DNA of 64,000 nt from a virus (IMGVR_UViG_3300028833_000144:10008-74007); one strand, 5' to 3'; numbered from the stretch's first letter, positions 4,198 to 64,000 are shown. Notes: generated by a model from the letters alone, not told the origin. Program-made: numbers and translations.

Positions 4198-4213
4198 CAT
4201 TATATACAATGTT

Positions 4214-7490: not shown

Positions 7491-7509
7491 TTTTGTACTT
7501 CTCCTTTTA

Positions 7510-9171: not shown

Positions 9172-9189
9172 TACTAAACTTTTCCTTTA

Positions 9190-16367: not shown

Positions 16368-16383
16368 AAGGAGGTTTTACAAC

Positions 16384-46559: not shown

Positions 46560-46921
46560 GCTTTAGCCTCTCTTTCTTCTCTGCTCTTAACGTATTCACG
46601 AACTTCATCTATACGATTAAAAGCGGTCTTGAGGTCACGCTTGATAACTGCTATTTCTTCCCCATGCTCCGCAAGTGTCTTATTCATAGCCTTTATATCT
46701 GCTCTTGTTTCGTTTGTAGTAGCACATACTTGGTCTAATTTCATATTAGCCTTAAATATGCCCGACCGCATTTCAGATAACTCTTTCTCATCTTCTTTAA
46801 TATCAGTCTTACCATTACGCACTTGAGCGAGAATAAAGGTGGTAACACCCACTATCATAGCGATAGCAGAAATACCCGTCTTTATGAGTTCGTTAATGTC
46901 TATCTCGTTACTAAGTACCAT
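46556..46921 (-). CDS. Lysis-cassette TM plus coiled-coil protein
   Basis: One TM helix, coiled coil, KTAFNRIDE; between holin and lysin. Confidence 0.6.
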   Translation of the reverse strand: MVLSNEIDINELIKTGISAIAMIVGVTTFILAQVRNGKTDIKEDEKELSEMRSGIFKANMKLDQVCATTNETRADIKAMNKTLAEHGEEIAVIKRDLKTAFNRIDEVREYVKSREEREAKA

Positions 46922-46922
46922 T

Positions 46923-47126
46923 TCAGTCCTCTACTTCGGGCAAGCCTGCAAGAGATGTAGCAAGAGAGAGAATAGACGCTAGGGCGGATGCAGAGAGTAC
47001 ATACACCCAATTAACATCTTGAAGCACAACAGAACAACCCACGCCTGCAACAAAGGCTTGAAAAAAAGTCTTAATTGCTCTAACGCCTGCTTTTTCCCAC
47101 CATTCTTTACTTTTAAGATATTTCAT
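46923..47126 (-). CDS. Holin (r1t family)
   Basis: WEKAGVRAIKTFFQ..VNW..SLATSLAGLPEV. Confidence 0.85.
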   Translation of the reverse strand: MKYLKSKEWWEKAGVRAIKTFFQAFVAGVGCSVVLQDVNWVYVLSASALASILSLATSLAGLPEVED

Positions 47127-47164
47127 AGTCTTAATCCTCCCTTCACTTAAAGTATAACACGAAG

Positions 47165-47260
47165 TTATATTTCCTTATACAACACACTCGCAATAAACGC
47201 AATTACAGGAACGGCTATCTCGCCTATGGTACGGATAATGTCGTAGGTTTTATTAGTCAT
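47165..47260 (-). pseudogene. Truncated Dp-1-type holin (31 aa)
   Basis: MTNKTYDIIRTIGEIAVPVIAFIASVL then an abrupt YKEI-stop. Confidence 0.55.
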
Positions 47261-47271
47261 TGTGAGTCTCC

Positions 47272-47385
47272 TTATTTTAACTCGTCAGCGTCAAGTAAAG
47301 CCTTAACTGCCTCATACCACCTTGCAGGTACTTCTTCAAGCGTCATTTCTCCTGCCTTTATGCGTCTGTAATATATTTTCGCCAT
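47272..47385 (-). CDS. XkdX/CD1375-like small protein (not in ORF track)
   Basis: MAKIYYRRIKAGEMTLEEVPARWYEAV. Confidence 0.75.
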   Translation of the reverse strand: MAKIYYRRIKAGEMTLEEVPARWYEAVKALLDADELK

Positions 47386-47386
47386 A

Positions 47387-47662
47387 TTACTCACCTCCTA
47401 CGATAATTCCTGCAAGCTCTGTAAGTGCGGAAAACACATCGTCAAGAGCCACATCATGCCCCTGAACAGATTGGAATATCTCCCAGTCCTCTTTGGCTAT
47501 TTTCTTTTCCAAGAAGTGCCAATGCGGCTCGATGCGCTCTCCGTCTCCTTCGATGAACTCGAAGTCTTTACGAACTCTTACCCACCTTCTGTCTGTGAAC
47601 ACCACAGAATCGGGTTGATGTTCTCTGTCCGATGTGTCGTATGCGTCATACCAACTTAACAT
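47387..47662 (-). CDS. Small tail-fibre-associated protein
   Basis: GGAGG RBS; typical position before XkdX-like genes. Confidence 0.55.
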   Translation of the reverse strand: MLSWYDAYDTSDREHQPDSVVFTDRRWVRVRKDFEFIEGDGERIEPHWHFLEKKIAKEDWEIFQSVQGHDVALDDVFSALTELAGIIVGGE

Positions 47663-47702
47663 GATGCTTTACCTCCATTTGGTTATGTATTCTTTGCCAA
47701 TG

Positions 47703-47728
47703 TGTTGTTGCAATTACCGTCGTAAATC
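47703..47728 (-). repeat. Probable DGR template-region remnant
   Basis: 26 nt align to 47870-47895 with 8 mismatches, 7 of them at adenines of this copy. Confidence 0.55.
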
Positions 47729-47777
47729 GTGAGAATTTTCGTGCTACGTAAACCCATATATCAAAGTTCCTTTACTA

Positions 47778-49391
47778 TTACCTATAAGAAACGGAAGCCC
47801 CGACGTCCCCGTACGCAGAAGACGCAGTGTTGCTCAGAAAAAGATAGAACGCACCGCAAGAAGCCGCATCGTTGTAGCAAGCACCGCCGCGAACCGCGTA
47901 TCTTTTACCTGTTGTCGTGACATAGAAGTAGTCTTTATATCTTGTCGAAGATGAAGAACTTATTTCCTTATCATAGAATGAGCCGTCCTCATTGAAGTAC
48001 ATCTTCTGAACAAAGTTCTGTGCGGGTGCGGTATCATTCTGCGTAAGGTAATTCGTTCCTTCTGTGTTATAGTCAGAAGCCGCAGAGCCGTCAGCCGTAC
48101 TCTTTGTCAACTTATATTTCCACACATTATCATCGAGAATAAGTCCACAGAAGCGTCTCATCTGGTTAGACCATTGATTCTCCATGCCGAACACTTTCAC
48201 ACCGTAGTCATTCGTGTTGCTACCCCAGAACATACCCTTTGTGTCCATAGTGCCTGTACCAAGCATAGATGAAACGGCTGAAGTCTGCCTGCACCTACCG
48301 TTACCAAACTTACCGCTTGTGTCGAGCGACTTACTTATGAGAATAAGTAAGTAAGACATGACGATGTAATCACAGTAGACTTCCGTGTCCCAACCGCTAC
48401 CATTCCTCTGTGCCATTGTTCTTTCAACTGTTACGGTCTTACTCTGGCACAAGTCCTTATAGGTCTTGCCACTCAATGAACGGAGAACATCATTCGTTCC
48501 GTCATTGACGATAGAGCCGTTGTAAATCGGTGTGTAGAAATGTTCCACAGCATTTCCGTTATCATCGAGATTAGACCATGCGTGATACTGTCCGTCAAGT
48601 TTCCTATCAGAGATATAAACCGAAACAGAAGCGTCATCGTTAGCGTCAGGAACTACCTTATACCATATCTTACCCCACTCCATCATGGCGTTTCCGTCAT
48701 AAGCGTCATTCGCTATATCAGAAGCCGTGCCGTCCTCTTTCTTTGAGTAATCGTTCTTATCGAGGTAGTAATCAACTGTTCCGTCAGATTTCAGCATACA
48801 AGGGCGAGGCATGAAGAAAGCATTTTCCCAAGAGCCGTAAACAAACTTGTCATTAGTGTAGTCCATGTAAGCAGGTGTCATGCCTACTGCGTCCTCAAGG
48901 TAGGTAACTGCGTCATCTGCGTCCGTCTCGGCACTATCAATATGGAACCCGTAGCATATCTTCTTTCCGTCCACCTGATAGAGAGTGTCGCCTATCTTGA
49001 GAGTAGAGAGCGAGGCGGCGGGCGTGCCGTCAGCGTTACCTTCAACGTGTCCACTTATCTTATCGCTTGACCAAGTAAGAGCCGTACTTATAACACTATC
49101 ATCAATAACAGAAGGCTCGTTAGCCGAAGGCACAAGCACCCAAGACGAGCCGTCAGAAACAAAAGTATCTCCCGCTTTTGCCGTCTGCCCCGCATATGTG
49201 CCGTCTGTTATGACGATATACACAAAACCTTCGTTAGAACTTGAAGCTGTAGGTAGAGTTGTTATCGTTCCGCCTGTGCCAAGAGTTCCCTTAAAAATCA
49301 TAGGCAAGGGAAGTGCGTCTATGCGTTCATTGGCAACTTTGGCTCTCTTTAATGCGGCAACGGCAAGTGCAAATGTTGTATCGTTATCCAT
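47778..49391 (-). CDS. Tail fibre / receptor-binding protein with CLec (DGR-target-like) C-terminus
   Basis: FGMENQWSNQ, AVRGGACYN..CGAFYLFLSNTASSAYGDVGASVSY. Confidence 0.75.
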   Translation of the reverse strand: MDNDTTFALAVAALKRAKVANERIDALPLPMIFKGTLGTGGTITTLPTASSSNEGFVYIVITDGTYAGQTAKAGDTFVSDGSSWVLVPSANEPSVIDDSVISTALTWSSDKISGHVEGNADGTPAASLSTLKIGDTLYQVDGKKICYGFHIDSAETDADDAVTYLEDAVGMTPAYMDYTNDKFVYGSWENAFFMPRPCMLKSDGTVDYYLDKNDYSKKEDGTASDIANDAYDGNAMMEWGKIWYKVVPDANDDASVSVYISDRKLDGQYHAWSNLDDNGNAVEHFYTPIYNGSIVNDGTNDVLRSLSGKTYKDLCQSKTVTVERTMAQRNGSGWDTEVYCDYIVMSYLLILISKSLDTSGKFGNGRCRQTSAVSSMLGTGTMDTKGMFWGSNTNDYGVKVFGMENQWSNQMRRFCGLILDDNVWKYKLTKSTADGSAASDYNTEGTNYLTQNDTAPAQNFVQKMYFNEDGSFYDKEISSSSSTRYKDYFYVTTTGKRYAVRGGACYNDAASCGAFYLFLSNTASSAYGDVGASVSYR

Positions 49392-49402
49392 ACCCTACCT
49401 CC

Positions 49403-49603
49403 TTATAACCAATGCCATGTTCCATCTGAGTCACAAATGCCGACATCGCCATCAACAGTTACGGCTGTGGAGCCAAATCCCAGTTCATAATCTCCCACTG
49501 TCAGCTCGTCCGTGACTTCCACCTTTGTGTCAGCGACAACAGTCGCGATCACTTTTCCACTCTCTGCGTTTCTCTGCTGGATTCCTACCATTCTAACTGC
49601 CAT
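49403..49603 (-). CDS. Small tail-associated protein
   Basis: FGSTAVTVDGDV..DSDGTW family motif. Confidence 0.55.
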   Translation of the reverse strand: MAVRMVGIQQRNAESGKVIATVVADTKVEVTDELTVGDYELGFGSTAVTVDGDVGICDSDGTWHWL

Positions 49604-49625
49604 TTTCTTGATCTCCTTTGTATTT

Positions 49626-51060
49626 TTAATTTTCTGTTATTTCATAGATTAAGGTCATTGTGTGGTTCAGGTTCTTATCAACGAAATCCACACTGTTCAA
49701 GTTATATACTGTTGATACCCATGGGAAGAACGCATCCAGTGAGCAGGTCCAGTTCGCAGCTGCGGGCCTGTTGGAGTCCATCTTCATGATATTCGTTCCA
49801 TACAGATCACCACTGTGGATGCCCTGAAGCAGATTGCCCTGCACGTGGTAATCGTTCAGATTCGTTCTGTACCACTTATCGTTGTGCCAGTAGAGTGCCG
49901 ACGTGCCGTTCCTCAGCGCCTTGTAGCGGTCTCCGTTTGGAAGACCTATCCATACTCCGTTCTTATCTGAAGCGATCGGATCGTCACAAACTTCAGTCCA
50001 TGACGAATCTGAAAGACCACACTGAACGACTTTCAACACGGAATTGACTTCTGCGACTGCATACAGATATGGAACTCCGTTATCGTATTCGATCCACATT
50101 CCGTCCTTAACATTCGTGGTAAAATCGACCAGGCTTCCCGCCCAGGTCGGGAATGTCAGCCCGGTGTAAGTCCTCGAATAAGTCGTGACCAGTGTGAAGT
50201 CTGATGGATCAATCACATAGTCAACAAGCTGATTGGATCCAACATTCACGAAGATATAGTGAAGCAGATTCCCGACATACACGACTGTCGTGTTCTCGAA
50301 AATGTGTCTTTCTGACATAGCATAAGGAATGCCACTCTCCATGCTGATGATGTGAGTGCTTCCGATCTGCTCCCGGATATCGAGGGAAGCACCGGTCAGA
50401 TGCAGGATCTTCGTGTTGAGTGCATACTCTTCAATCTTGATCTCACCCTCTGTCGTGTCCCCTTCATACCAAACCTTATAACCAATCTCGCGCTCGTAGT
50501 CGATGACGGTCAGCTTCATGAGGTCATTTGACATCGCGACAGTTCCGTTTGAAAGAGACTCGTTCGCGAAAGTCATGGGAAGAGTCGGATCGTCTTCATA
50601 GTCGAGGTTGCCCGCGACCTTGAAGTGTACTTTTGCCAGATTCGGCCTGGTTAAACACACGGACTCGATATGTCCGTTTCCGTGGGTTTCGTTCCATCTC
50701 CACACGAACCTATATCCACCGGTTATCGGACCGGTCATGCCTGAAGAGTTATCAGCTGAACCTCTTCTCAGGTTGTTTCCTGTGTAAGCATCGTTGCCCG
50801 CCGTGGCGACGATCTCCGCATCACCGGCGACCATGCCAAAAGTGTCGCCTGCTGTCGGGTTCGCCTTATCAGTGAGGATGCAGCCACCGAACCAGTTCTG
50901 CGCAACGGGCATCATCTTCGTTCTATCCATAATGCCGTTGAAGTCGCCTCTTGAGATAGCCTGAGCAACAAATGGAGTGATGGTATTATGGCCCTCGATT
51001 CTTTTTATAACGCGGTCTGTTCTCGCGTCGTGCAGTTCAAGTCTAACGTGACCTTTCATT
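49626..51060 (-). CDS. Baseplate/tail-tip protein
   Basis: MKGHVRLEL..IEGHNTIT..ETHGNGHIESVCL; ATG at 51060 after AGGAGG. Confidence 0.55.
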
Positions 51061-51721
51061 CTTGCTCCTCCTCCGAGGTGTCTTTGATCTTTATATAATT
51101 CGCCTTGCCGTCGAATTGATGAAGAGCAACACCGCCGTACCACTCGCCGATTTTTATGTCGTTAATCGGGAAGGAATCCCAATACGAGGTAATATGTTCC
51201 CACTCTCCCTCATGTCCTTCCTCCCATTCTTTAGGGACGCCTTGCGGGATTGTGGTGCATATAGAGTTCCAAAAGCCGTGCTCGTCTTGAGTGAATAAGA
51301 TAAAGCCTCCGTCTTTGTTAAAAGAGACGCGGAGCGGTGTATTTCTCCAATCGCCTTCAAAGCGTCTTGATGCGCCTGAAATCTCCCCGATTGCCCGATG
51401 TTTCTCGTCAGAGTCATCGAAATAAATACGACCGAGAATATACACTATCATTCTGTATTTATTCATCGAGAACTCGACAACACGGGTACATTCGTGTGGC
51501 TCGACGCCTGGTCCTGACATCGTGATAAACCCGAACGCGTTGTCGTTGTCGTAGTTTTCCGCGTCTGTATCGAGGCTGAACTCGACCAAAAAGGAACGCC
51601 CGCGCAAATTGATCGTATCGTATGGATCTTCGCTCGAAAAATCGACATTATACAATTCCATGTCCCACTCTGACGGTGCCGGTGGAAGATTCCTGTTCGG
51701 GTATGCTTTGAAAAAAATCAT
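51056..51721 (-). CDS. Tail-associated hypothetical protein
   Basis: Coupled ORF in the tail operon. Confidence 0.55.
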   Translation of the reverse strand: MIFFKAYPNRNLPPAPSEWDMELYNVDFSSEDPYDTINLRGRSFLVEFSLDTDAENYDNDNAFGFITMSGPGVEPHECTRVVEFSMNKYRMIVYILGRIYFDDSDEKHRAIGEISGASRRFEGDWRNTPLRVSFNKDGGFILFTQDEHGFWNSICTTIPQGVPKEWEEGHEGEWEHITSYWDSFPINDIKIGEWYGGVALHQFDGKANYIKIKDTSEEEQE

Positions 51722-52059
51722 CCTATTATCCTCACTGTTACAACCAGGTCATACGAGAGTTCCGGGAATGTCAGATTGAGGACTCCCGGAACAGCCTGCT
51801 CATTAGTCGGATAAACTCCGCGCGGAACTGTGAAATACTCAATGCAGGAACCGTCTTTGATATGAGGATCTTGGAAGAGGAGCGAAGTCTCACCTGCTTC
51901 CAAGGTCGCCTGCAACTTTGTAATGCACGAACCGACTATATCTTTTGGAGTCGTGCTATATGAACCATATGCACCGTTGACCAAGTTATCCGTCGCAAGC
52001 ATCGAGGTCTCGGAATCGAGTGTCCCACTCGGGAGCTGATTAATCTCCACATTTGCCAT
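51718..52059 (-). CDS. Tail-associated hypothetical protein
   Basis: MANVEINQLP N-terminus typical of fibre-related proteins. Confidence 0.55.
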   Translation of the reverse strand: MANVEINQLPSGTLDSETSMLATDNLVNGAYGSYSTTPKDIVGSCITKLQATLEAGETSLLFQDPHIKDGSCIEYFTVPRGVYPTNEQAVPGVLNLTFPELSYDLVVTVRIIG

Positions 52060-53765
52060 TATTCATTCCCTCCTGATATAACAATATTGTCACCACCTAC
52101 TGTGGCGATTCCGTCACCTGATACAGTCGATAGATAGAAAGTTTCCGTGCTCTGCTCTGTGGTGAGTGTCACACTCTCGGTCAGGTCTGAATTGAAGACA
52201 GGACCGGAAACGAGAGGCGTGTATTCGTCTGTAAGTGAAAGATATCCATCTTCTCCGCCTGTGGAAGCATCCATCTTCTGTCCCATTAACAGGGCATGAA
52301 CATCGCCTGCCGCAATAGTCGCGGAACCTGAGTCGATGGAAGCTGCAACCTTGAATCTGTGAACGACTCCCGGAGCGACATTGACGAGCCAGTAGTCTCC
52401 CTTGAAGAGATGATATCCGTTCTCTCCATAAGTATTGATAGGTTCATACTCGATCAAACCGCCATCATAGTAGTAATGCAGTTTGACCTTCTGCGTGGTT
52501 CCATCAAGAGCTGACAGGATCTTCAGCTCGTGCCACAAGGTTACGGTTGTTTGGTCAGCTGTTGCGAAATAAATCTCATATATCTTCTTTTCTGTATGCG
52601 ATAGCGAGATAGCATCTGCGTTTATAAACGGGTAATAAGTGATCCCTTGCGACTTGCTGTTCTTCGCATTTGAAGCGATCTGCTTCTCTTCTTTGCTCAT
52701 TACGGTTGAAGCTGCCGGATTCTCTCCATAGCCTTCGATGACGGTGCAGTCCATCTTGATCGTGTAAGACATGATGACTCCGATAGAATTTGCACCGATG
52801 CCGCCCGTGAAGCGAATAACATCGCCAAGGTCATAGGCAGGATTCGGAAGAATCGACACAGAGAACGGTGTCGCGTTGAATGGTTCCAGCGAATCAATGA
52901 CAGCCTGTCTCTGTCTATCAAGGTCCGCATCCTCACCGTACTGCAAGAATGGGTTCGTGCCGATCTTCATAGTCAGTCCGCCGCTTCTGGTATTGAAGTA
53001 GAGCGAAATGGTGTCATCGACCATGTTCTGAACTTCGAGATCTGAATAGAAACTCGTGTAATCGGAGAACGAAGTCGAATATCTCAACTTCGCGGGAATC
53101 TCGTCAGTGATGACCGATGTGTCCGGCATCGGCCTGAAGACCAGATATCCGGACCTGTCTATTGTGGCGAAGCATCCAACCGCAGCTGCAAGTTGTGACA
53201 GCATATCGCGGTAAGTCATGATGGACGAGCCTCCGACAAGTGTCAGAGTCTCTGTCCCGTTCGGGAGTGCTTCACATTCTGCCTGTGTCATTTCCAGAGT
53301 CGCGCTGCATTCAGTGCAGATCAGGGAAAGCAAATCGAATAAGCTCCCCGATGTTGTATTGAATTGAGCAGTCTTATCGAACAGGCTCATATTGTCGTAA
53401 GCCACGACTTTGAGTCCTGCATCGCTCCATACTGCCTGTTCTATCGTGAACACTCCAATCGGAATGTATTCGAAGGAACTGTCTTCAAGCTCCACACCGA
53501 ACGAGATCGTGATGGAGAGTCCTCTCCAAGAGCCTCGGATGTTCATAGTGTTGGCGAATGCTTCCGTGAAAGTCAGGTCTAATTCGCCGACATACACGCC
53601 GCCAAGCTCGATCTCTGTTGCGGGGCAAAACTGATTCTTATAGACGAACGAATTGCGAATGATATCGCCATCATCGAAGGACGTGCCTCGGACGGTTCCT
53701 GATATCTTATGCGCCCGCGCGTTACTTGCAATCGCGGTCAAATAGTCGTTCGATACGGAATACAT
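52059..53765 (-). CDS. Tail-associated (Tal/hub-like) protein
   Basis: MYSVSNDYL..IELGGVYVGEL..YIPIGVFTI..AYDNM; follows the Dit-like gene. Confidence 0.7.
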   Translation of the reverse strand: MYSVSNDYLTAIASNARAHKISGTVRGTSFDDGDIIRNSFVYKNQFCPATEIELGGVYVGELDLTFTEAFANTMNIRGSWRGLSITISFGVELEDSSFEYIPIGVFTIEQAVWSDAGLKVVAYDNMSLFDKTAQFNTTSGSLFDLLSLICTECSATLEMTQAECEALPNGTETLTLVGGSSIMTYRDMLSQLAAAVGCFATIDRSGYLVFRPMPDTSVITDEIPAKLRYSTSFSDYTSFYSDLEVQNMVDDTISLYFNTRSGGLTMKIGTNPFLQYGEDADLDRQRQAVIDSLEPFNATPFSVSILPNPAYDLGDVIRFTGGIGANSIGVIMSYTIKMDCTVIEGYGENPAASTVMSKEEKQIASNAKNSKSQGITYYPFINADAISLSHTEKKIYEIYFATADQTTVTLWHELKILSALDGTTQKVKLHYYYDGGLIEYEPINTYGENGYHLFKGDYWLVNVAPGVVHRFKVAASIDSGSATIAAGDVHALLMGQKMDASTGGEDGYLSLTDEYTPLVSGPVFNSDLTESVTLTTEQSTETFYLSTVSGDGIATVGGDNIVISGGNE

Positions 53766-53766
53766 A

Positions 53767-54132
53767 TCAGTCCTCCAAGTCTTCCAGTTTGAAGCTCACT
53801 TTGTAAAATCGAGTCGTCGCAGTCTCAAGAATCAGGTCAGCGGAATAGTTCGTCATGAAGCAGTGCCATGTGACAACAGCGCCACTCGCTTCATTCCATC
53901 GCTTGCAAGTCAGTTTCGAGGCGCGAGAGAGTGCGTCAAGTTTGCCCTTCTCGGTGCCGTCACACTTATAAGCTACGGACAGAGAAGGAATGCCTGTTCT
54001 CACCACTGCTCGAAGAGTTGTTCCTGCTTCTGAAGTCTTCAAAGAATCGACGTTCTTGAAGCTCTCCGAATATTTATCATTCGTTAGATCGAGTGTTATA
54101 TTGTCGAGTTTTAGTGATATTACATTCGCCAT
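53767..54132 (-). CDS. Distal tail (Dit)-like protein (phage B)
   Basis: Directly after the TMP; KTSEAGTTLRAVVR motif. Confidence 0.6.
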   Translation of the reverse strand: MANVISLKLDNITLDLTNDKYSESFKNVDSLKTSEAGTTLRAVVRTGIPSLSVAYKCDGTEKGKLDALSRASKLTCKRWNEASGAVVTWHCFMTNYSADLILETATTRFYKVSFKLEDLED

Positions 54133-54134
54133 GA

Positions 54135-55934
54135 TTAGTTCCCTCTTCTGTATGTCGCGAGCTGGTCAGCTCTGATGAGGATAGTGTCGAGCCTCTCCTG
54201 TCCAATATTGACAGGAATGACGATATTTCCGCCTGTCCCGCTCATATCAGTTATCAGCTCCGGTGCAGCCATAGTCGGGAGTGACAGTGTCCTGTTCAGA
54301 GTCGCCTCGAGCTCAGGACTGCCATCTTCGATTCCTTCAATAAAGGACCTCACGAGTCCTGCACCGCCGTGGACATCCATGTCCGAGAGAGGCCCCTTTT
54401 CGGGAACCGAAAAGTGCAGGTAATCCGATATGCACGAAGCCAAATTGCTCGCTGCGTCGCTTAAATTTCCGAACATCGAGCGGACGCCATCGATCAGGTT
54501 CTGAACCATGTCGATGCCCCACTCAAGCGCGTTGGATGCGAGCTGTGGCCCGAGCTGTCCAAACTCTTCAAGCATGGATGTGATGAGTGTCGGGATCTCG
54601 GCGAGGATGGTCGGTGTTGCCTGGATGAGACCTTCAACGATTCCGAAGAAGAGGTCCTGTGCCGCAGCGATGATCTCATCAAGGTGTTCCATTAATGTCT
54701 CAGTTATCGTGTAGATACACTGAATTACGGCCGGGATAAGTTCAGGAAGTGCGTTGGCAATTCCTTCCGTAACGGCGATGATAATCAAAACTGCCGAATC
54801 GATCACGGTTGGTAAATTTTCAATCAAAAATTCGACCAGCCTGACGATGAGGTCTGCCGCCACAGGTGCCAGCTGAGGAAGGACAGCAATTATCCCTTCA
54901 CAGATGGCGAACAGGACTTCTCCCGCGCCGCTCAGGATGGTCGGTAAATTCGCAATTAAGGCATTTGCCAGAGTTATGATGATCGTTGTCGCGATATTAA
55001 CCAGTGTTGGAAGATAGGTAGAGATCAGGCTCGTGAGCTGAGGGACGATCGTGTCAAACACGGCTCCCATCTGTGTGATATCGCCGTTTGCCGCAAGGAT
55101 GCCCTGCGTAAACTGACCGAGTAAGTCAACACCGCTGGTCCCCATCTCTGTGAGGATCGGGAGCAATATCGTGCCAAGTGCATTCTGTGCAGCCTGCATA
55201 CCTGAATCGAGCTGATGCGTCACATCGTCAAAAGCGCCAAATGCTTCGAGTGTATCTCCATCAAGGATTGCACCCGCTTCCTGCGCTTGCTGTGCGTATT
55301 GTGCCATTCCATCAGATCCAACTGCTATGAGACTGTTCAAGTCTTGAGCTGACCGTCCGAAAATTTGCATGGAAAGTGCATCGCGCTGTGTATAGTCATC
55401 GACCTGACCGAGTGCGTCAATCAACTCCCAGTAAACAGTCTGCGAGTCTCTCAAGTTACCGTCTGAATCAGTGACCGCAACTCCGAGTGCTGCATAAGCA
55501 TCGGCGACGGCTCCTGTGCCGTCTGCTGCACTGTTCATGCTTCGAACATTTCGTGCCATGGAAGAAGTCAAGGTCTCTGTTGAAACATCGACTAACTCTG
55601 CCGCATACATATACGCTTGAAGGTCTTCAGTGGCGATATGAGTATTCGTGCTCATGGTAAGAACTTCATCGGCATACGCACCGCCCTGTGCCGTGAAATT
55701 AGCCAGGGCTGTCGCGCCTTCAGCAAGTCCGCTTGCTATCTGGGAACCGATGGACAGAGCGATGGAACCCGCACCGAGCAAAGCGGAGGAAAACGCATCA
55801 CCAAAGTCCGCACCGCCTGCCGAGCCCTGCGATGAAAAATCAACACCGGATAACTCGGAAGCGATCGTCTCCTGTGCGCCTTCCATTGATGGCACGATCG
55901 TCACATAGGCTCTCGCGAGTTCAATATTCGGCAT
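54135..55934 (-). CDS. Tape measure protein (short, 599 aa)
   Basis: ELARAYVTIVPS (r1t-like start); amphipathic repeats; HFSVPEKGPLS. Confidence 0.85.
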   Translation of the reverse strand: MPNIELARAYVTIVPSMEGAQETIASELSGVDFSSQGSAGGADFGDAFSSALLGAGSIALSIGSQIASGLAEGATALANFTAQGGAYADEVLTMSTNTHIATEDLQAYMYAAELVDVSTETLTSSMARNVRSMNSAADGTGAVADAYAALGVAVTDSDGNLRDSQTVYWELIDALGQVDDYTQRDALSMQIFGRSAQDLNSLIAVGSDGMAQYAQQAQEAGAILDGDTLEAFGAFDDVTHQLDSGMQAAQNALGTILLPILTEMGTSGVDLLGQFTQGILAANGDITQMGAVFDTIVPQLTSLISTYLPTLVNIATTIIITLANALIANLPTILSGAGEVLFAICEGIIAVLPQLAPVAADLIVRLVEFLIENLPTVIDSAVLIIIAVTEGIANALPELIPAVIQCIYTITETLMEHLDEIIAAAQDLFFGIVEGLIQATPTILAEIPTLITSMLEEFGQLGPQLASNALEWGIDMVQNLIDGVRSMFGNLSDAASNLASCISDYLHFSVPEKGPLSDMDVHGGAGLVRSFIEGIEDGSPELEATLNRTLSLPTMAAPELITDMSGTGGNIVIPVNIGQERLDTILIRADQLATYRRGN

Positions 55935-55940
55935 ATCGAA

Positions 55941-56366
55941 TCAGCTCCTTTTCTTGTAGTTCTTTATCCACTCCCGGAGTTCTGACTTCGGGAGAGCACC
56001 TTTGCCGATCTTCTTGGTCTTGGTCTTGCCCTCGCTCCAAGGTCGCGGCATAGGTGTTATCTTTGAGGCTTTCTTGTGGCTGAATCCGGCACACAGGTTC
56101 GCATTGATCTGTGATAAAACATCGAATATATCTGCCAGAAGTGCGTTCGTCCTCAAAGTAGTAGCCCACAGTGCGGTGTCTTCGTGAGTTGATCGCCAAA
56201 GTGCCGAATCAAAGTTATTCGGAAGAGCTTTGACGAACGAAGAGAAAGCTCCCATCGACAGGGAGCTTCCAACTTCGCTTAACTCGATACCGGCTGAGGT
56301 TATCAAGTCATATTCAATCGCCTCTTTGTGTCCATTCACGAACTCGCAGAGGCTTGCGATTCCCCC
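55941..56366 (-). CDS. Tail assembly chaperone, frameshifted second part
   Basis: -1 frame relative to the TAC at GGGGGAA; EAIEYDL..LWRS..LLADIFD. Confidence 0.7.
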   Translation of the reverse strand, partial: GGIASLCEFVNGHKEAIEYDLITSAGIELSEVGSSLSMGAFSSFVKALPNNFDSALWRSTHEDTALWATTLRTNALLADIFDVLSQINANLCAGFSHKKASKITPMPRPWSEGKTKTKKIGKGALPKSELREWIKNYKKRS

Positions 56367-56710
56367 AGGGAGATCCCCTGGAACTTCAGAGCGGCTTCCT
56401 GCCATGCGTTGAATAACGCGATCAGGTCTTCCACCGCCCAATCCTTAAATCCTAATCTCTCAAAGACTTCCTTCGGGATGATTGACTCATATATATCAAT
56501 CAGCTCGTTAAAGACTTTCGAATTTGCTTCGAGTTTCTCTGAATTGCTCCCGTTACCCTTGATGATCTCCGTGAGCTTCGTGATATTCGCGAGCTTGTCA
56601 TATAAGCCCGTCGGCATCGACGCGCCCATAGGGAGCGAGATTACTTCTTCGTCTATCTCCACATTGAAATAAACTTTCTTCTTCTTCTGGAACTTGAAAA
56701 CCTCAGCCAT
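56336..56710 (-). CDS. Tail assembly chaperone
   Basis: Between tail tube and TMP. Confidence 0.7.
   Translation of the reverse strand: MAEVFKFQKKKKVYFNVEIDEEVISLPMGASMPTGLYDKLANITKLTEIIKGNGSNSEKLEANSKVFNELIDIYESIIPKEVFERLGFKDWAVEDLIALFNAWQEAALKFQGISLGESQASASS
56360..56366 (-). other. -1 programmed frameshift site GGGGGAA
   Basis: CTG GGG GAA in the TAC frame, GGG GGA in the downstream frame; same heptamer as the mycobacteriophage L5 TAC site. Confidence 0.7.
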
Positions 56711-56724
56711 TTTTCCGTATCTCC

Positions 56725-57255
56725 TTAAATCGTCTGTCCGTCATCGCAAACGAGTGTCCAGTTGCCCTGGATGGTAACTTCCCACTCGATTGCTTCGTCA
56801 TTCTTGAATGTGACATCGCCAAGCTCACTGATGAGACCATTGGATGTGCCAAGAATCTTCATGTCGTCGCCGTCCTTCATTACGAAAAGGAAAGCAGCAG
56901 CGGCAGGCTTGGCATCCGTGTCGATCGTGAGGAGCTTGCCATGGTCCGCAGTAGCGGCGGTCTCGGTGACAGAACCGAAGATCGCTGTGAGTGCAGCCTT
57001 CGTTGTGTCCATGATCTTAGCTGAAACTGTTGCGGGATCAGCGCCGGGAATAACTCTCTTCGGCTGACCTGCCCAGTTCTTGAGTGTGTCGCTGTCGCGA
57101 GGTGTGAAAGTGATACCATCTGCGTCGATATCACCAACTTCTGTCCATGCTGTCAGATCATCACCCGGATATGTGGGGAGAGCTGTGTTAGCAGGTGCAG
57201 TGTAAAACATACCGGAAGCATAACCGCCTCCGAGCTGAACTTCATTTGAAGCCAT
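56725..57255 (-). CDS. Major tail tube protein
   Basis: FYTAPANTALPT..VGDIDADGIT..ELGDVTF; r1t-like. Confidence 0.8.
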   Translation of the reverse strand: MASNEVQLGGGYASGMFYTAPANTALPTYPGDDLTAWTEVGDIDADGITFTPRDSDTLKNWAGQPKRVIPGADPATVSAKIMDTTKAALTAIFGSVTETAATADHGKLLTIDTDAKPAAAAFLFVMKDGDDMKILGTSNGLISELGDVTFKNDEAIEWEVTIQGNWTLVCDDGQTI

Positions 57256-57260
57256 ATCGT

Positions 57261-57653
57261 TTACCTCCTGTTAATAGTTGTTTTCTCTTGATGTGCTACG
57301 ATTCTTAATCTGGCGGAGCACATAGCCAGGTCAGGCCGAACAGGATCGCTCCCCCATGAGCCTGATGAATTAACTTCGATAAATCGAATCGCTGTTGTTT
57401 GGTCTTTTGCCACTTGTTTCAAAACACCGATCGCGTTTCTCAACTGTTCGTCTGCGTCAGCTGGTTCCTTCGCTCTCGAATCAAGAACGATGTCGAATGT
57501 GTCGATCGTGTTAGCGTCCGTTCCGCCGACTCTCTGAACTTCGAGAGACGGCACGGTGAACTTTGACGGAAGAGGTCGGCAGTAAATAGTGAAGTAGTCA
57601 GATAAAGCCAGTCTGACGATGTTCTCGATATCAATACTTCGTAATATTTCCAT
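57261..57653 (-). CDS. Tail terminator
   Basis: VQRVGG...DPVRPDL motif; position. Confidence 0.7.
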   Translation of the reverse strand: MEILRSIDIENIVRLALSDYFTIYCRPLPSKFTVPSLEVQRVGGTDANTIDTFDIVLDSRAKEPADADEQLRNAIGVLKQVAKDQTTAIRFIEVNSSGSWGSDPVRPDLAMCSARLRIVAHQEKTTINRR

Positions 57654-57654
57654 A

Positions 57655-57903
57655 TCAATACACCGCCTGACTCAATACTTTGTCTTCCGCTTCAGCCTGT
57701 GCGCTTGCCTCGTCTGTGGTTCCTGCGAACGCGATGTAACGAGTCCCCGCCTTGACTGAGTGTGCCTGGAAACTATCAAGACCGCTTGCCGAATTTGCCC
57801 GTTCCGCGATCATGGTCGCCTTTTCAGTGACCAGCTGTTCCACTTCGGGAGAGTTAAGGAGCTGACGGAAGCCGTCTGAATTGAAGACTAATCTCACACT
57901 CAT
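57655..57903 (-). CDS. Neck protein
   Basis: FNSDGFRQLLNSPEV; position. Confidence 0.6.
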   Translation of the reverse strand: MSVRLVFNSDGFRQLLNSPEVEQLVTEKATMIAERANSASGLDSFQAHSVKAGTRYIAFAGTTDEASAQAEAEDKVLSQAVY

Positions 57904-57906
57904 AGA

Positions 57907-58245
57907 TCATCCCTCCCATCTCATCAAGTTGAGCTGGATGTGGGAACAGCGCATCGTGCCTGTCCAGATCCTCGGTTTTCCATTGATCTCGTAGGTGTTA
58001 CCATCGAACTCGATGTGATCTCCGGCTTTAACATCCGAGTCATCAGGGAGATAGGCTGTCCATCCGTCAGATATACCGAGGATGCGCCCATCCTGCGACA
58101 AGGAAGTTGATGCCGGCTGAACAGAACAACCATGAATGTCAAAAGGTTCTTCGGTGTTTTCCCAATCAGGGACCAAAGAACCTCTCACATCCTTATATTT
58201 CGGTCTGATGACCGTTATTGTCTGATTAGCAAAAGAAGGAAGCAT
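57907..58245 (-). CDS. Head-closure protein
   Basis: GCSVQP..DVKAGDHIEFDG.TYEING. Confidence 0.7.
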   Translation of the reverse strand: MLPSFANQTITVIRPKYKDVRGSLVPDWENTEEPFDIHGCSVQPASTSLSQDGRILGISDGWTAYLPDDSDVKAGDHIEFDGNTYEINGKPRIWTGTMRCSHIQLNLMRWEG

Positions 58246-58246
58246 A

Positions 58247-58657
58247 TCAATGACACTCCCTTCTCTCTTTCATTAAACTCAATGCGCTTATCTGCTGTCT
58301 TCTAAGACCAAGTGTCTTCAGATCGGAAGGCCAGAGTTTTATTGAACCACTTGAGTTGGGAAGGCTGAACGACTGCGACACACCGCCCGCCGCTTCACTG
58401 TATGAAGTTGCGGGAAGTTGTGTGCCGGGAGTGTTCAACTCTCTCATAACCACGTCACAAACTACACCCTTCGCCACATCTGACAGGTCGGGATCGGCAG
58501 TGATCATCTGATCGAAGTCTCTTCCGACCTTCTTGGCTTCAACACGAATCAGCGAACTGATGACAGGGATGAGCGCATTTGCTCTGTCCTGCTCCGCTTG
58601 CGTCAGAGGTCTTTTGAGACTCTGTATATCCGCAACAGTTGCATAGTTTGTTCCCAT
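58247..58657 (-). CDS. Head-tail connector (Gp19/Gp15/Gp42-like)
   Basis: NYATVADI..RPLT..EQDRA..S..AGGVSQSF..LKTLGL. Confidence 0.8.
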   Translation of the reverse strand: MGTNYATVADIQSLKRPLTQAEQDRANALIPVISSLIRVEAKKVGRDFDQMITADPDLSDVAKGVVCDVVMRELNTPGTQLPATSYSEAAGGVSQSFSLPNSSGSIKLWPSDLKTLGLRRQQISALSLMKERRECH

Positions 58658-58667
58658 AGTTCACCTC

Positions 58668-58847
58668 TTATTTCTTCGTTGTTCTTCTTCTCTTTTTAGG
58701 CGCTTCGATCACTTCTTCTGTGGGGACTGTGGAAATAGCGGCAGACTTTTCAGCCTTGCCGCCTATCTTCTCCCAGTTCTTTCCGTTTAACTCGGAAGCC
58801 ACATCAATGATCGCGCCCGTGACTTTGTTTCGATAGCGCATGATCAT
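58668..58847 (-). CDS. Small basic protein after MCP
   Basis: YRNKVTGAIIDVASEL.G.NWE; RBS AAGGAG. Confidence 0.65.
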   Translation of the reverse strand: MIMRYRNKVTGAIIDVASELNGKNWEKIGGKAEKSAAISTVPTEEVIEAPKKRRRTTKK

Positions 58848-58855
58848 TCCGCTCC

Positions 58856-59728
58856 TTACTCTTCGATTCTTGCGAATGCTGCACCATCGAGGATAGCCCA
58901 ACCAATCCATGCCTCTGTTCTGAGGTAAACCTGGTTGTAACCCTTGAGGTCCTTGCCGGAGTTGTCAGGATCACCGTACTCGATAACCTCGAGGTTGATG
59001 GACTCTGCATAGCCCCACTTGAATGCGTTCTCAAAGTCACCGCAATATGCGTGCTTACCGGTAACTGCGGAAACTGTGCTGTTTACAGAGGAAGGAACGC
59101 CCTTGATGGACTCAGGCTGTCCGCCCCACTGAAGCTCAGGATACTGAGATACGCCATTGACCTTGAGGCCTGCGAGAGCCTGTGCGAATGTCTTGTCGAT
59201 TGCGATACCGTTGAGGTCGTAATCACCAAGAGCTGCAACTGCTGTCTCGACATTTCCTTCCGGATCAGGTGAGAGCGGGTTGTAAGTAATATCATTTACA
59301 TCTGTGTTCGTGTCGAATGAGTTTGTTCCGATTGCTGTCGCAGCAGAACCAGTTGCGGGATTAACACCATGGAAAGCCATGATATCAAGACCACGAGCGA
59401 CCTTCTTTGCGAAGCCCTCATTGAATGCTCTGAGATACTCGAGCTGCTTCTCCTCGGAGCAACGAACGAACTCATCAGATACTCTCTGGCCATACTCGAT
59501 CTTGAGAGGAACCATTCTGATAACACTGTTTCCGCCTGTGTGCTCACCCTTTGCAGCTCCTTCGGCTACGAGATTGACTTCTCCATCGAGAGAAAAGGTC
59601 ATGATGTCTGTACCGCTGAATGCGATAGGTGTCTGCTTTGCGAGCTTCGCGATGGAAGACTTGCCCTGTGCTGCTACGAATACTTCCCTTACCAACTCAG
59701 AAGGGAAACCTGCTGATGTGAAAGCCAT
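58856..59728 (-). CDS. Major capsid protein (phage B, r1t-like)
   Basis: GKSSIAKLA.QTPI, PLKIEYGQRVSDEF, ARGLDIMAFHG, YNQVYLRTEA.IGW. Confidence 0.9.
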   Translation of the reverse strand: MAFTSAGFPSELVREVFVAAQGKSSIAKLAKQTPIAFSGTDIMTFSLDGEVNLVAEGAAKGEHTGGNSVIRMVPLKIEYGQRVSDEFVRCSEEKQLEYLRAFNEGFAKKVARGLDIMAFHGVNPATGSAATAIGTNSFDTNTDVNDITYNPLSPDPEGNVETAVAALGDYDLNGIAIDKTFAQALAGLKVNGVSQYPELQWGGQPESIKGVPSSVNSTVSAVTGKHAYCGDFENAFKWGYAESINLEVIEYGDPDNSGKDLKGYNQVYLRTEAWIGWAILDGAAFARIEE

Positions 59729-59744
59729 AATTCTTTCTCCTTTA

Positions 59745-60209
59745 TTAATTAGTTTTTATTGCGCCAAGAAGGGACTTCATCGCCGTTTTTGCCGGATCAG
59801 TCGATTCTCCGCTTTCTGTTGATTTTGTCGGTGCGAGAACGGTTCCCGCTCCAACGAGCTTCTTCAAGGACTCCGCGTCAGCTCGGATGGACTCTTCATC
59901 TTCTCCGCTGATTCTGGAAATCCAGTCATAAGACAACCCGACCTCATGAGCGATCCGGCTCTTCAACGATGTCGTCTCGTATGTTTTTACTTTCGCTGTG
60001 AGATCTGCGATCGTCTGCTCATCGTTCTTGTGAGCTTCCTTGTAATCACTAAATGCCTTGTTAGCCTCTTCGATTCCCTTCTGATGGTCTTCCGGAGAGA
60101 TCCATCCTTTGAACCTGTTTTCAGCGGACTCCCGCTCGCGCTTCAGGCGATTCGTGATGATCTTGTCGAGCTCTTCCTGTGTCTCGATGGGCTTGAATTC
60201 TTCTGACAT
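59745..60209 (-). CDS. Capsid scaffolding protein (phage B)
   Basis: FKPIETQEELDKII..RL.GEDEESIRADAE. Confidence 0.8.
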   Translation of the reverse strand: MSEEFKPIETQEELDKIITNRLKRERESAENRFKGWISPEDHQKGIEEANKAFSDYKEAHKNDEQTIADLTAKVKTYETTSLKSRIAHEVGLSYDWISRISGEDEESIRADAESLKKLVGAGTVLAPTKSTESGESTDPAKTAMKSLLGAIKTN

Positions 60210-60255
60210 AATTTTGTCCTTTCCCCGATTTTGTCCGTTCGGTAACGTGAATTTA

Positions 60256-61641
60256 TTAATAACTAACGCGCTGCTTCTTGACTTCTTTGTAAGTCGAACA
60301 GGCGTGAGTTGCTAATACACAAGACTCGATGAGTGCCACTTCAATGTCATCATCTAAAGTCTTGTAACCGTAACCGCCACCCGAGCCAATCGCACGGTGC
60401 TGACAGTTTGTGACTGATTGCCTCAATCCTGGCTGTCCACAGTGACATATCGTCTTCTTTGTGATGGCTGTTTCGAAGTCTGAGGATGCTTGAACAACTT
60501 CCTTAACCTTGCAAGCGTTCACGCCCTTGAGCTTTTGCTTTTGACACTCTTTGATAAATGTCTCGAGCCCGGAAGCACCGTCAACCAAGACCGTCTTCAC
60601 GTTACACTTAATCAAGAAGTTGATTATCCAGTCATTTCCTTCGCGCTGGTTCCTGCAATCAATCGCTTCAACGAATATCCGGTCATCGTCGGTCTTGACC
60701 GCAACTGACAGACAGGCATTCATTCCATCGCAACCGAATTTGACACCTGCACAAAGAGGAGCCTTGATCTTCGGCTTCTCCACTTTGCACGCGTCCCACT
60801 CAGGTGCGCTTATCGCGGACTGCTGATTGTATTGGATCCATAAACCTAAGCGCTGGATGTTGAAGTCGATATCATCGCCGTTGATCTCGTCTCGAATGGT
60901 CCTCTCCGTCAGGATGGTTCCAAGAGACGGGTTCGTCAGATACCATGCTTCTTTGTCGTTGACATCCGTCTTATGATCGACTGACCACTCCGCCCACCCT
61001 GCGTTGATCTTGTTGCCCTGAATGGTGTCGTCGCGATAGTCACGGAAAACATCACCGCCGGACACCGCTGTCGGAGGCGTTCCACACATGATGGTCTGCG
61101 GGTTCTTCGATGATGATGTGACGTAGTTTAGAGCCGTCTGCTGCGCCTTGGTGTATTCCTGCGCCTCGTCGATTATAAGAAGATCGTAACCGGAACCAAG
61201 AGCGCCTGATGAGGTTCGTGTTCTGAAGTCTACACAGCCACCCGTTGACAAAATCTCGATTCGCTCTCGACCGATAGCCTTATAAGTAACTATCTCTACT
61301 CCGATCGCCTCGAGTCTTGCCTTCAGACGTTCCCACGCGATGTGGGCCGTGTCCGTCAGGTGCGCTGTGTGCAGGATGTGTTCTCCTGTGAACAGCCCCC
61401 AGATCTCGCGCATGGTCAGGTCTTCCGTCTTGCCATTTCGTCGTGGGACGGAATAACCGAACTTCGTGTGAACCCATAGGCCATCTTCAGTCGTGGCCAT
61501 GATGTCATTAATCAATAACGCCTGCCATTCTTGACAGACGTTATTGCTCATATCGTATAACTGGACTGCTTCATCCCCGTATGACTTCTCATACGGCAAT
61601 ATGACAGATAAAGTCGGGATCTGATTCCCGACTTTAGTCAT
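60256..61641 (-). CDS. terL: Terminase large subunit (r1t-like, phage B)
   Basis: GNQIPT, VPRRNGKTE, FRTRT, DLLIIDEAQEY, GTPP. Confidence 0.92.
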   Translation of the reverse strand: MTKVGNQIPTLSVILPYEKSYGDEAVQLYDMSNNVCQEWQALLINDIMATTEDGLWVHTKFGYSVPRRNGKTEDLTMREIWGLFTGEHILHTAHLTDTAHIAWERLKARLEAIGVEIVTYKAIGRERIEILSTGGCVDFRTRTSSGALGSGYDLLIIDEAQEYTKAQQTALNYVTSSSKNPQTIMCGTPPTAVSGGDVFRDYRDDTIQGNKINAGWAEWSVDHKTDVNDKEAWYLTNPSLGTILTERTIRDEINGDDIDFNIQRLGLWIQYNQQSAISAPEWDACKVEKPKIKAPLCAGVKFGCDGMNACLSVAVKTDDDRIFVEAIDCRNQREGNDWIINFLIKCNVKTVLVDGASGLETFIKECQKQKLKGVNACKVKEVVQASSDFETAITKKTICHCGQPGLRQSVTNCQHRAIGSGGGYGYKTLDDDIEVALIESCVLATHACSTYKEVKKQRVSY

Positions 61642-61689
61642 CTTTGATCTTTACCTCCTGTGGCTTGTCTCTCGAATGTAATTTCATAG

Positions 61690-62541
61690 TTACACACTCC
61701 TGCTTGCTCTCGCCCTTGCGAGCCTCTCGGCTGCTTCTGCGAGCTGTCGCCTTTGTTCGTCCGTCAAGTTACGTTCTGCATTACTCAATCGCCTGATTTC
61801 CGAAGACGGAGCAGACTGTGTCCGCCGCGTCTGGTCGGCAGGCTCAACAAATTGAGTGCGGACCTGATTATTAACTCGCTCCGTGTAACGCGAGCCGTTG
61901 CGCTCCGTCACGAAGTCGATAGTGCAACGACAGTTCTCGTGTCTTCTCCAAACATCGTTACCCGTTCCCCGGACTTCGTCATAGTTATATGTCCCGGCAA
62001 CCTCACGACACCAAGCGCAAGCCTTAAACTCTGCCACGCGAATGACTTTCGACTCGATACCGACTCGACTCATCACACTCGCGTTGCTTCTTATTGATTC
62101 ATCGACTACGTTTTGCGAAAAATTCGCAATTTGGTCGTAAAAAGTGTCTTCTATATTGGTGAATTCGGGATTTTCGCGTAATTCTTCGACCATTCCGTAA
62201 CAGCGGTCCTTGTCAAACCTCGGTTCCACATACCGCATCCCGAGCTCTGCGTCAGCATTCATGTTTTCTTGAACTGTCCGGCAGGCTTCAGATACGATTG
62301 CATGGTCAAGACCGAGTGACTTCGGAAGAAGGTTCTCAATATCCCAGTCTGCTATGCTCGTTTCCGGCGCATACTCTCTCAGGACACGAGCAAGACATTC
62401 ACCCACCCGTGCCGCATAAGCCGAAGCGGTCGAATATGTCCCGCGTCCTGAATTAATGAGCGCCAGAAGGTTTTGAGCTCTCGTATCTTCCGCGAGCGCA
62501 TCCAGGAACGGACCTTTGATGTCTTCGTAAGTAACCATCAC
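61690..62541 (-). CDS. Minor head protein (r1t ORF28/MuF-like)
   Basis: CAWCREVAGTY..RRHENCRC. Confidence 0.7.
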   Translation of the reverse strand: MMVTYEDIKGPFLDALAEDTRAQNLLALINSGRGTYSTASAYAARVGECLARVLREYAPETSIADWDIENLLPKSLGLDHAIVSEACRTVQENMNADAELGMRYVEPRFDKDRCYGMVEELRENPEFTNIEDTFYDQIANFSQNVVDESIRSNASVMSRVGIESKVIRVAEFKACAWCREVAGTYNYDEVRGTGNDVWRRHENCRCTIDFVTERNGSRYTERVNNQVRTQFVEPADQTRRTQSAPSSEIRRLSNAERNLTDEQRRQLAEAAERLARARASRSV

Positions 62542-63764
62542 TCAATACCCGTCAGCCTTCTCATCCTCGATTCGTCAATATAATCGGGGATGGCAAGATT
62601 CAACTTCTGGACTCCATCACCGATGGCGCTAAGCATCTGCGCGTCAGGCTCGAACGTGGGTTTCCACATCATCTGCGTTTCGAAGATGACTTCGCGTCTG
62701 TAGTCTTCGTTGTCTCTCATGCAAGCGCCAATATAGCCGACATTCTTGAAGCCGACCGAGAAACATCTCTGTGCCTTGCTTGCTGCAAGCCTCAGATTCT
62801 CGTGTGCCGCCTTGATTGCTTCTGCGCTTGACGGATTACTCGTGACGAATCCCAGATCATCAAGAGTCAGTCCCGTTTCTCCTGCGAATAATGAAGCCGT
62901 CGCCTTCAGCTGTTCAACGTGGGGAGCCATCGAAGATGCTTGGAACTGTCCGAGTGTCGGCTTGTCTCCATCCTCATCCTTCGAGAATGTCAGCATCGCC
63001 GACATTGTCGCCTGCCATTTATCCATAACGTCCGCATCAGGACTCACGCCCGTCACGTACTTCTGCGGGAATGAATAGAACTCTGACGAGATTTCCATTC
63101 TCTTCACCGTTCTCATCGCGCTTGCTGAGTATTCCATACAAGCACGAGAAATTCTCGAATGACCGAACGGTCTTTTCGCGTCAGGTCTGTATATGATCGG
63201 GACCAGTGAGCAATATCTGGACTTGAATTCTTCGACCAGAACGGGATCAGTCTCGTCCTTCTCGTAATACTCAACACGGCCCGGTGTGAAGTACGCCCAC
63301 CTTGTCGGAACATCCTGATCGTCTCTCTCCAAAACTGCATACCCTTCAAGGAGCAGCTTCGTGAAGTCGTCGATGATACCCGTTGCGTTGGATCCATCAA
63401 TGATATTGAACCGCATTTTCGTCTCTTCTTTGAACTTCTCGCCTCGTGTAATATGCACGAACGCGCATGAAGTTATGAGTGAAGACAGGATTGCATCATC
63501 AAAGAAGATGTCAGGATTGTTCAAGTTAAACATCTCCTGCATCATGAAAATATCGTTCTCAAAACTGTCAAACTGGAGACGATCGGCAAGGTTATCAACG
63601 GCCTTGGTACACCATCCATTGACCACTTCGAACCAACGAAGACCTTCCGGAGTTGAAATTCCAAGGTCGTGAGCAGTCTGCTTCTGCTCATAATATCTAT
63701 AACGGAGAAGGACTCTCCTTCTCTTGAGTTCCAGCTTTTTAGCCAGATAAGTCATCCCCTTCAT
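62538..63764 (-). CDS. Portal protein (phage B, r1t-like)
   Basis: RYRYYE, GWCTKAVDNLADRL, RPFGHSRI, SEFYSFPQKY, NPSSAEAI. Confidence 0.9.
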   Translation of the reverse strand: MKGMTYLAKKLELKRRRVLLRYRYYEQKQTAHDLGISTPEGLRWFEVVNGWCTKAVDNLADRLQFDSFENDIFMMQEMFNLNNPDIFFDDAILSSLITSCAFVHITRGEKFKEETKMRFNIIDGSNATGIIDDFTKLLLEGYAVLERDDQDVPTRWAYFTPGRVEYYEKDETDPVLVEEFKSRYCSLVPIIYRPDAKRPFGHSRISRACMEYSASAMRTVKRMEISSEFYSFPQKYVTGVSPDADVMDKWQATMSAMLTFSKDEDGDKPTLGQFQASSMAPHVEQLKATASLFAGETGLTLDDLGFVTSNPSSAEAIKAAHENLRLAASKAQRCFSVGFKNVGYIGACMRDNEDYRREVIFETQMMWKPTFEPDAQMLSAIGDGVQKLNLAIPDYIDESRMRRLTGIE

Positions 63765-63961
63765 TATTTCCCACTCCTAATCTTTTTGATGATATCGTCA
63801 GCACTTGGACGGTCTTCTGACACGGACGCACCGGCTGCATCCATTATCTTTTGCATTGTCTGGATTGCTTGTATTCGCACCGCCGGAGAGGTCTCCAAGT
63901 CGTCTCGAATAGCGATCAATGTCTGAATGTTCAATTCAGTTTCTTTGTCGAGCTTAATCAT
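63764..63961 (-). CDS. Small helical protein, possible TerS of phage B
   Basis: GGGAGG RBS before ATG at 63961; upstream of portal. Confidence 0.4.
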   Translation of the reverse strand: MIKLDKETELNIQTLIAIRDDLETSPAVRIQAIQTMQKIMDAAGASVSEDRPSADDIIKKIRSGK

Positions 63962-64000
63962 TGTCTTCCCTCCCGGGGTTTTATAAGGCAATATGTCACA

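Follow-up and report, generated by a model that had tools for sequence, protein, structure and literature searches.

Probably two phages in one contig

The stretch of viral DNA analysed here, 64,000 nt long and referred to as the window, comprises bases 10008-74007 of a single 74,007-bp IMG/VR contig (IMGVR_UViG_3300028833_000144). It contains two complete head-packaging modules of different families, as had been predicted from the sequence, and both are confirmed by Pfam and PHROG matches. In all probability these modules belong to two different phages, A and B, that have been strung into one contig, their linkage being an assembly artefact. There is very probably no single virus with two heads here. 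Phage A is, with high confidence, a complete and circularly closing genome of 58,736 bp, with approximately 37.5 % GC and genes of its own for head, tail, fibre, lysis, and replication. Phage B is most likely an r1t/Aster-like cos siphophage of approximately 49 % GC, of which only the left arm is present (putative cos end, head, tail, and the start of the fibre gene). The evidence consists of the sequence and of contigs from other assemblies, those from ENA being known from their gene tables alone.

The IMG/VR record is classed as linear, with a CheckV completeness of 100 %, and the 74,007-bp contig contains no Ns and no terminal repeat. GC was computed as 0.375 in A and 0.494 in the sequence specific to B, giving a composition break at the join and bearing out the earlier estimate, made by eye, that B is the more GC-rich. 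In a nucleotide comparison, A and B have no similarity outside the fibre gene. The heads are indeed unrelated, as first proposed; this does not extend to the distal tail proteins, which are distant homologues (27-32 % aa identity) in the same PHROGs (phrog_23052, phrog_19291). This homology may explain how a single type of fibre can serve both tails. Neither half had a megablast match in the phage collection.

The join within the fibre gene

The first 127 nt of the contig recur exactly at window positions 48730-48856, inside a fibre gene, with the first mismatch at nt 128. The self-comparison aligns contig bases 1-586 with window 48730-49314 (88 % identity). This identity is graded: the A and B fibre genes are approximately 60-75 % identical at the 5′ end, then differ at 6 of 356 nt, and agree exactly over the final 127 nt. 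No second occurrence of the last 127 nt of the contig was found anywhere in it. The features of the join are as follows.

47778-49391, minus strand: fibre gene, 537 aa, tail protein of phrog_5302 (PHROG match)
47778-48729, minus strand: 3′ two-thirds of the fibre gene in the form found on circle A (a JGI contig described below is identical from 48856 to approximately 48064); in true A it follows A's own 5′ part
48730-48856, no strand: 127-nt word equal to the first 127 nt of the contig (exact match); the probable chimeric join and de Bruijn branch point of the A and B paths
48857-49391, minus strand: B-specific 5′ part of the fibre gene, linked to the B tail; its first 220 residues have 86 % protein identity to the A copy

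The JGI metagenome workflow uses metaSPAdes with k = 33, 55, 77, 99, and 127 (bioRxiv 10.1101/2020.09.30.320929). A repeat of exactly the largest k, present at the contig start and again internally, therefore indicates that the contig began at a graph branch vertex and passed it again. On this reading, bases 1-58736 of the contig are a closed circle, which is A, and window 48730-64000 (15.3 kb) is the second branch from the vertex, which is B; the B-only spur is window 48857-64000 (15.1 kb). On this path, the assembler would have set out from the 127-mer that the two fibre genes share, walked once round A and back to the same 127-mer, and then left along the B branch until the physical end of B.

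The original prediction had placed the start of B at 47165 or 47272. B-specific sequence begins at 48857, and the rise in GC before it belongs to the fibre gene of A and to a 91-aa open reading frame (ORF). For this reason GC alone was rejected as a locator of the join: the rise from approximately 47250 lies in A's own genes, which in both A variants stand out as an island of higher GC (0.46-0.47). An exact-product look-up of the 537-aa fibre of the window returned no record, which may be explained by differences in start calls or by this chimeric version of the fibre being unique to this contig.

The left end of the contig cuts the fibre gene of A, holding its first 220 codons (genome 662 down to 1). 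It had been suggested that the B operon stands where the tail genes of A should be, and that the sequence left of position 1 should be checked for that tail. The check was positive: the 10 kb of contig that precede the window carry the tail genes of A, one of which encodes a tape measure protein (TMP) of 1119 aa. With its tail and the fibre 5′ part both accounted for, A lacks nothing and its tail is not missing.

Independent assemblies

Each of the two components is found alone elsewhere. In ENA assembly ERZ27257202, A is on a contig of 58,877 bp, which is 58,736 + 141. It opens with a truncated fibre C-terminus of 412 aa, after which come the 91-aa ORF, holin, lysin, and the A replication genes, and at its other end the A tail (467 aa, 72 aa) is followed by a cut 171-aa fibre N-terminus. 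The 171-codon fragment had been predicted beforehand from a 58,736-nt circle with a 141-nt overlap, and the prediction was borne out exactly. The largest default k of MEGAHIT, a possible assembler of ERZ27257202, is 141. In the same assembly, B is on a separate contig of 15,282 bp, corresponding to window 48719-64000 and running from a cut 78-codon frame and the portal gene to a cut 224-aa fibre N-terminus.

Over its first 12,436 nt, the contig under study is matched at 100 % identity by a JGI contig (Ga0310694_10000387, 59,754 bp; here L012). L012 passes the left end of that contig through a complete 537-aa fibre gene into the 91-aa ORF. As L012 reads through the A tail and fibre, the A tail is joined directly to the 3′ part of the window's fibre gene in the real reads of another assembly. 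What L012 demonstrates is the tail-fibre junction of A, on a contig that carries A without B. Look-ups of the helicase and RecA returned short Logan contigs, which did not place the start of L012.

Phage B and its outer end

The B genes were assigned by Pfam and PHROG matches, and the predicted r1t order of portal, minor head protein, terminase large subunit (TerL), scaffold, and major capsid protein (MCP), followed by a full tail, is confirmed.

63765-64000, minus strand: left arm end of phage B, with a putative cos terminus and a reading frame of 78 codons still open at the contig end
58856-63764, minus strand: head-packaging module in r1t/Aster order (Pfam and PHROG matches)
62538-63764, minus strand: portal, SPP1 type (PF05133)
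61690-62541, minus strand: minor head protein (phrog_2494)
60256-61641, minus strand: TerL, 50-51 % identical to the TerL of r1t and Aster
59745-60209, minus strand: scaffold, DUF4355 (PF14265)
58856-59728, minus strand: MCP (phrog_10)
49403-58657, minus strand: tail module, with proteins of 66 aa, 505 aa (phrog_19291), 221 aa, and 113 aa, a 568-aa distal tail protein (phrog_23052), a 121-aa protein, a 599-aa TMP, chaperones, tail tube protein, and head-tail connectors (Pfam tags on ENA gene calls)

An exact-product look-up of the 505-aa tail protein returned no record, for which differing start calls may again be responsible. One IMG/VR relative, L007, matches the B tail at 90 % nt identity, with 95-100 % aa identity across most tail genes. 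After its homologue of the 505-aa protein, L007 has an unrelated fibre of 364 aa, a 127-aa protein, and a lysin, with a holin ahead of the lysin, and then an integrase on the opposite strand; its genes from fibre to integrase are approximately 45-53 % GC.

Read on the minus strand, the right end of the contig begins TGTGACA, 236 nt upstream of the B portal gene. Of the relatives found through the B portal, L014 (the closest, at 81 % aa) and L018 (69 %) both open with TGTGAC where they align with this end, and the complete genome of Faecalibacterium phage Aster begins TGTGAAT, 38 nt upstream of its portal gene. Aster has cohesive ends with 3′ overhangs, as predicted by PhageTerm from virion reads, and its deposited sequence was rotated to begin at the cos site (PMC11792537). 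The word TGTGA(C/A) is thus common to the ends of B, L014, L018, and Aster; an overhang itself is visible only in reads. Among the IMG/VR relatives of the B portal, 18 of 20 have a contig start within 1.1 kb upstream of the portal gene or inside it, and the ENA 15,282-bp B contig ends at the same place as the window. Window position 64000 is therefore, on the evidence of these end words, most likely the physical left end of B, which would account for two assemblers stopping at the same base.

More widely, B-type contigs from many metagenomes end just upstream of the portal gene at conserved words that differ by subgroup: TGTGAC, TGCACA.AAAAACACACGG, and TGCTTCC.CATCTCGC. Such end words are present at L014:1, L018:1, and L013:1, and also in L023, L026, and L027 and in L030 and L032. 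They are likely to be cos termini visible directly in the ends of metagenome contigs.

Alternative explanations

Some points weigh against an artefactual join. The assembly path has been reconstructed from sequence and from other assemblies. The ENA contigs were read as gene tables. A molecule holding the fibre repeat twice would give the same 127-nt signature, and there is a slim chance that a real hybrid continues past the shared stretch of B into A-like lysis genes. In such a hybrid subpopulation, existing beside ordinary A, the fibre gene would connect the B head and tail arm with lysis and replication genes of A type, the A head on this contig still being an artefact. Recombination has occurred at this place, in that the B tail is truly linked to an A-like fibre gene, and the continuation of B after the shared stretch turned up in none of the assemblies. 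However, B-type relatives have their own lysin of approximately 48 % GC and an integrase after the fibre, a hybrid would need a B-type terminase small subunit (TerS) and right cos end, neither of which is on the contig, and the ENA assembly holds B apart from A. A hybrid subpopulation is therefore unlikely. That the B arm is physically joined to A lysis and replication genes in some real genomes, so that a viable hybrid has been caught next to its parent, is a distinctly improbable proposition; if true, it would be a cross between an integrase-less phage of 37 % GC and a temperate-type cos phage of 49 % GC, made via a shared fibre gene.

The original prediction had also offered tandem prophages, a module swap that kept both heads, and a phage with two virion types. 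None of these is supported, A being found without B in two other assemblies and B on its own ENA contig. If one molecule held both phages in tandem, as prophages or as a co-integrate, the fibre stretch would be a true two-copy direct repeat at whose second copy the assembler stopped, and such a repeat leaves the same 127-nt end signature. Against this, both contig ends are in phage DNA, and the 74 kb contain no bacterial flanks, no integrase (no match to PF00589), and no att-like repeat, the fibre stretch being the sole long direct repeat in the self-comparison; the earlier observation that integrase and att site are absent therefore stands. In addition, a separate contig gives exactly the length expected of the A circle (58,736 + 141), and the outer end of B is most likely a packaged-DNA cos terminus common to its relatives, which is at odds with an integrated tandem. 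A tandem arrangement is thus very improbable. A single phage with two head-packaging modules, making two virion types or keeping a spare module after a swap, has in its favour the contig itself and the CheckV completeness of 100 %, and nothing else. The left contig end cuts a gene, none of the relatives examined carries both head types on one contig, and all of the points against the hybrid and the tandem also count here, so that this explanation is hardly credible. Two phages, A and B, joined during assembly at a shared fibre segment account best for the contig.

The genome of phage A

Within the window, phage A contributes the following features. All of the head genes given for this module in the original prediction, at 47-10091, were matched: TerS, a PBSX-type TerL, a 585-aa portal, a GP20-type scaffold, and MCP.

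47-10091, minus strand: head-packaging module and connector genes (Pfam and PHROG matches, portal tblastn), running on into the A tail genes left of the window (L001)
9600-10091, minus strand: TerS (PF03592)
7510-9171, minus strand: TerL, Terminase_3/PBSX type, 553 aa (PF04466/PF17288)
5383-7140, minus strand: portal, 585 aa (phrog_533)
4214-5383, minus strand: minor capsid protein (minor capsid protein 2; PF06152)
3335-4021, minus strand: scaffold, GP20 type (PF06810)
2372-3319, minus strand: MCP (phrog_422)
10088-45762, both strands: rest of phage A (PHROG and Pfam matches; GC approximately 0.36)
approximately 12.1-20.4 kb, plus strand: block containing an FtsK-like gene
20.4-45 kb, minus strand: replication and recombination genes (RecA, resolvase, clamp loader, replication initiator, SSB, Gam), together with methyltransferases interrupted by HNH homing endonucleases, an SNF2 helicase, and an accessory cassette
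45855-46559, minus strand: endolysin (Pfam ELLD and NlpC/P60)
46556-46921, minus strand: 121-aa protein (ORF)
46923-47126, minus strand: holin, r1t type, 67 aa (PF16945 in the ENA gene call)
47387-47662, minus strand: 91-aa ORF (ORF list)
within 45855-47662, minus strand: small ORFs of 31 aa and 40 aa (ORF list)

No tRNA genes were found in the window. At the C-terminus of the A TerL, after the nuclease domain, residues of approximately 505-539 match Pfam Intein_splicing (E 6e-14), and this C-terminal insert is possibly a mini-intein in the terminase. A 140-aa ORF (7119-7541) overlaps the 3′ end of the same gene. The FtsK-like gene of the plus-strand block (16360-17091) encodes an FtsK/SpoIIIE-like ATPase (phrog_1358). 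A second cell-wall hydrolase (PF07486 Hydrolase_2, SleB-like; 39308-39808, minus strand) is among the replication genes, far from the lysis cassette.

The original prediction had envisaged a chimera formed through shared fibre and holin DNA. The chimera and the sharing of the fibre gene are upheld; the holin is not shared. The lysis genes and the 91-aa ORF are in identical order on the separate 58,877-bp ENA contig. The lysin of the window is 38 % GC, compared with approximately 48 % for the homologous lysin of the B relative L007, to which it has only 61 % aa identity, and it is therefore A's own. Holin and lysin were considered as DNA shared by A and B and were ruled out, because B-type lysins are 61-64 % identical to that of the window in protein and 65 % in DNA. 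In IMG/VR, relatives of this lysin (only approximately 62-64 % protein identity) follow either B-like tails (L009) or tails with distant similarity to those of A and B alike (L003).

The JGI variant of A (L012:13870-14051) is unrelated to the window left of approximately 47220 (47218-47224), in the holin region, and its lysin is a different protein. Judging from this comparison, the lysis cassette appears to have been exchanged between otherwise identical A genomes, whose head and tail are 100 % identical over 12.4 kb.

Exchange and variation of the fibre gene

The B tail is linked to a fibre gene in which the first ~115 codons diverge from those of A, whereas nearly or fully identical sequence makes up the remainder of the known overlap. 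Exact words among the diverged codons are all too short to have produced a graph join at k = 127 or 141. Since the 5′ part has no such word and both assemblies agree, the linkage of the B tail to this fibre is real. The gradient of identity inside the gene reads as a trace of homologous recombination. It would follow from the sequence comparison that most of a fibre gene has recently been exchanged between A, which has no integrase, and B, whose relatives are temperate, the two being otherwise unrelated. Such an exchange is ordinary phage mosaicism, and from it A and B probably share a host.

The fibre tip (47778-47990, minus strand) was compared with that of the JGI variant of A (L012:13180-13388). 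The two A variants are identical over codons 180-462 and differ at 16 of the last 75 codons; all of the changes are non-synonymous, at codon position 1 or 2 and never at position 3. This pattern is typical of the variable region of a diversity-generating retroelement (DGR), here apparently acting on a C-type-lectin-like tip. No reverse transcriptase was found on the 74-kb contig. Faecalibacterium prophages are reported to be rich in DGRs (PMC11792537), and the DGR machinery may be on the missing right arm of B or elsewhere. In addition, directly behind the stop codon of the fibre gene (47680-47764), the window variant carries an insert of 79 nt that the JGI variant lacks.

Implications

An IMG/VR record with a CheckV completeness of 100 % is thus, very probably, one complete phage plus 15 kb of another, and a host call, taxonomy, gene-content count, or genome-length figure drawn from it would be contaminated. 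A cheap screen for contig collections would be to look for a first or last k-mer that recurs internally, with identity that decays on one side only. The main value of this analysis is in quality control; the biological remainder is modest.

Comparison with known phages and assembly chimeras

Phage A has no close match in the phage collection. The nearest named relatives of its head are the phiCD38-2 group of Clostridioides and the Faecalibacterium phage FP_Lugh, with portals that are 34-37 % identical (phiCD38-2, 37 %). Like these phages, A has a Terminase_3 (PBSX) TerL, a GP20-type scaffold, and minor capsid protein 2. Unlike them, it is larger (58.7 kb), has no integrase that could be found, and carries a large replication and recombination set and methyltransferases riddled with homing endonucleases.

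Phage B is closest to the Lactococcus r1t-like temperate cos siphophages and to Aster (PP479941), which has the same order of portal, minor head protein, TerL, scaffold, and MCP; the B TerL is only approximately 50 % identical to theirs. Aster is a cos phage with an integrase (PMC11792537), and the B relative L007 also has an integrase. B differs from Aster and the r1t-like phages in its fibre, which is of another family (phrog_5302) that it has in common with phage A.

Exchange of tail-fibre or receptor-binding genes between phages of one host gives the same gradient of identity within the gene, with unrelated flanks. The L007 relative of B, at 97 % identity, has an unrelated fibre at the same place, as in mosaic fibre exchange. 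Unlike in the usual case, the partners A and B are 12 GC points apart, which is a wider gap.

The contig itself resembles the repeat-mediated chimeric contigs of de Bruijn metagenome assemblies, in which the contig end is likewise repeated internally for exactly the largest k (here 127), two compositions are joined at a shared gene segment, and another assembly splits the product into two contigs. It differs from joins caused by sequencing error in that the shared segment itself comes from natural recombination, and the join in the graph therefore reflects real mosaicism.

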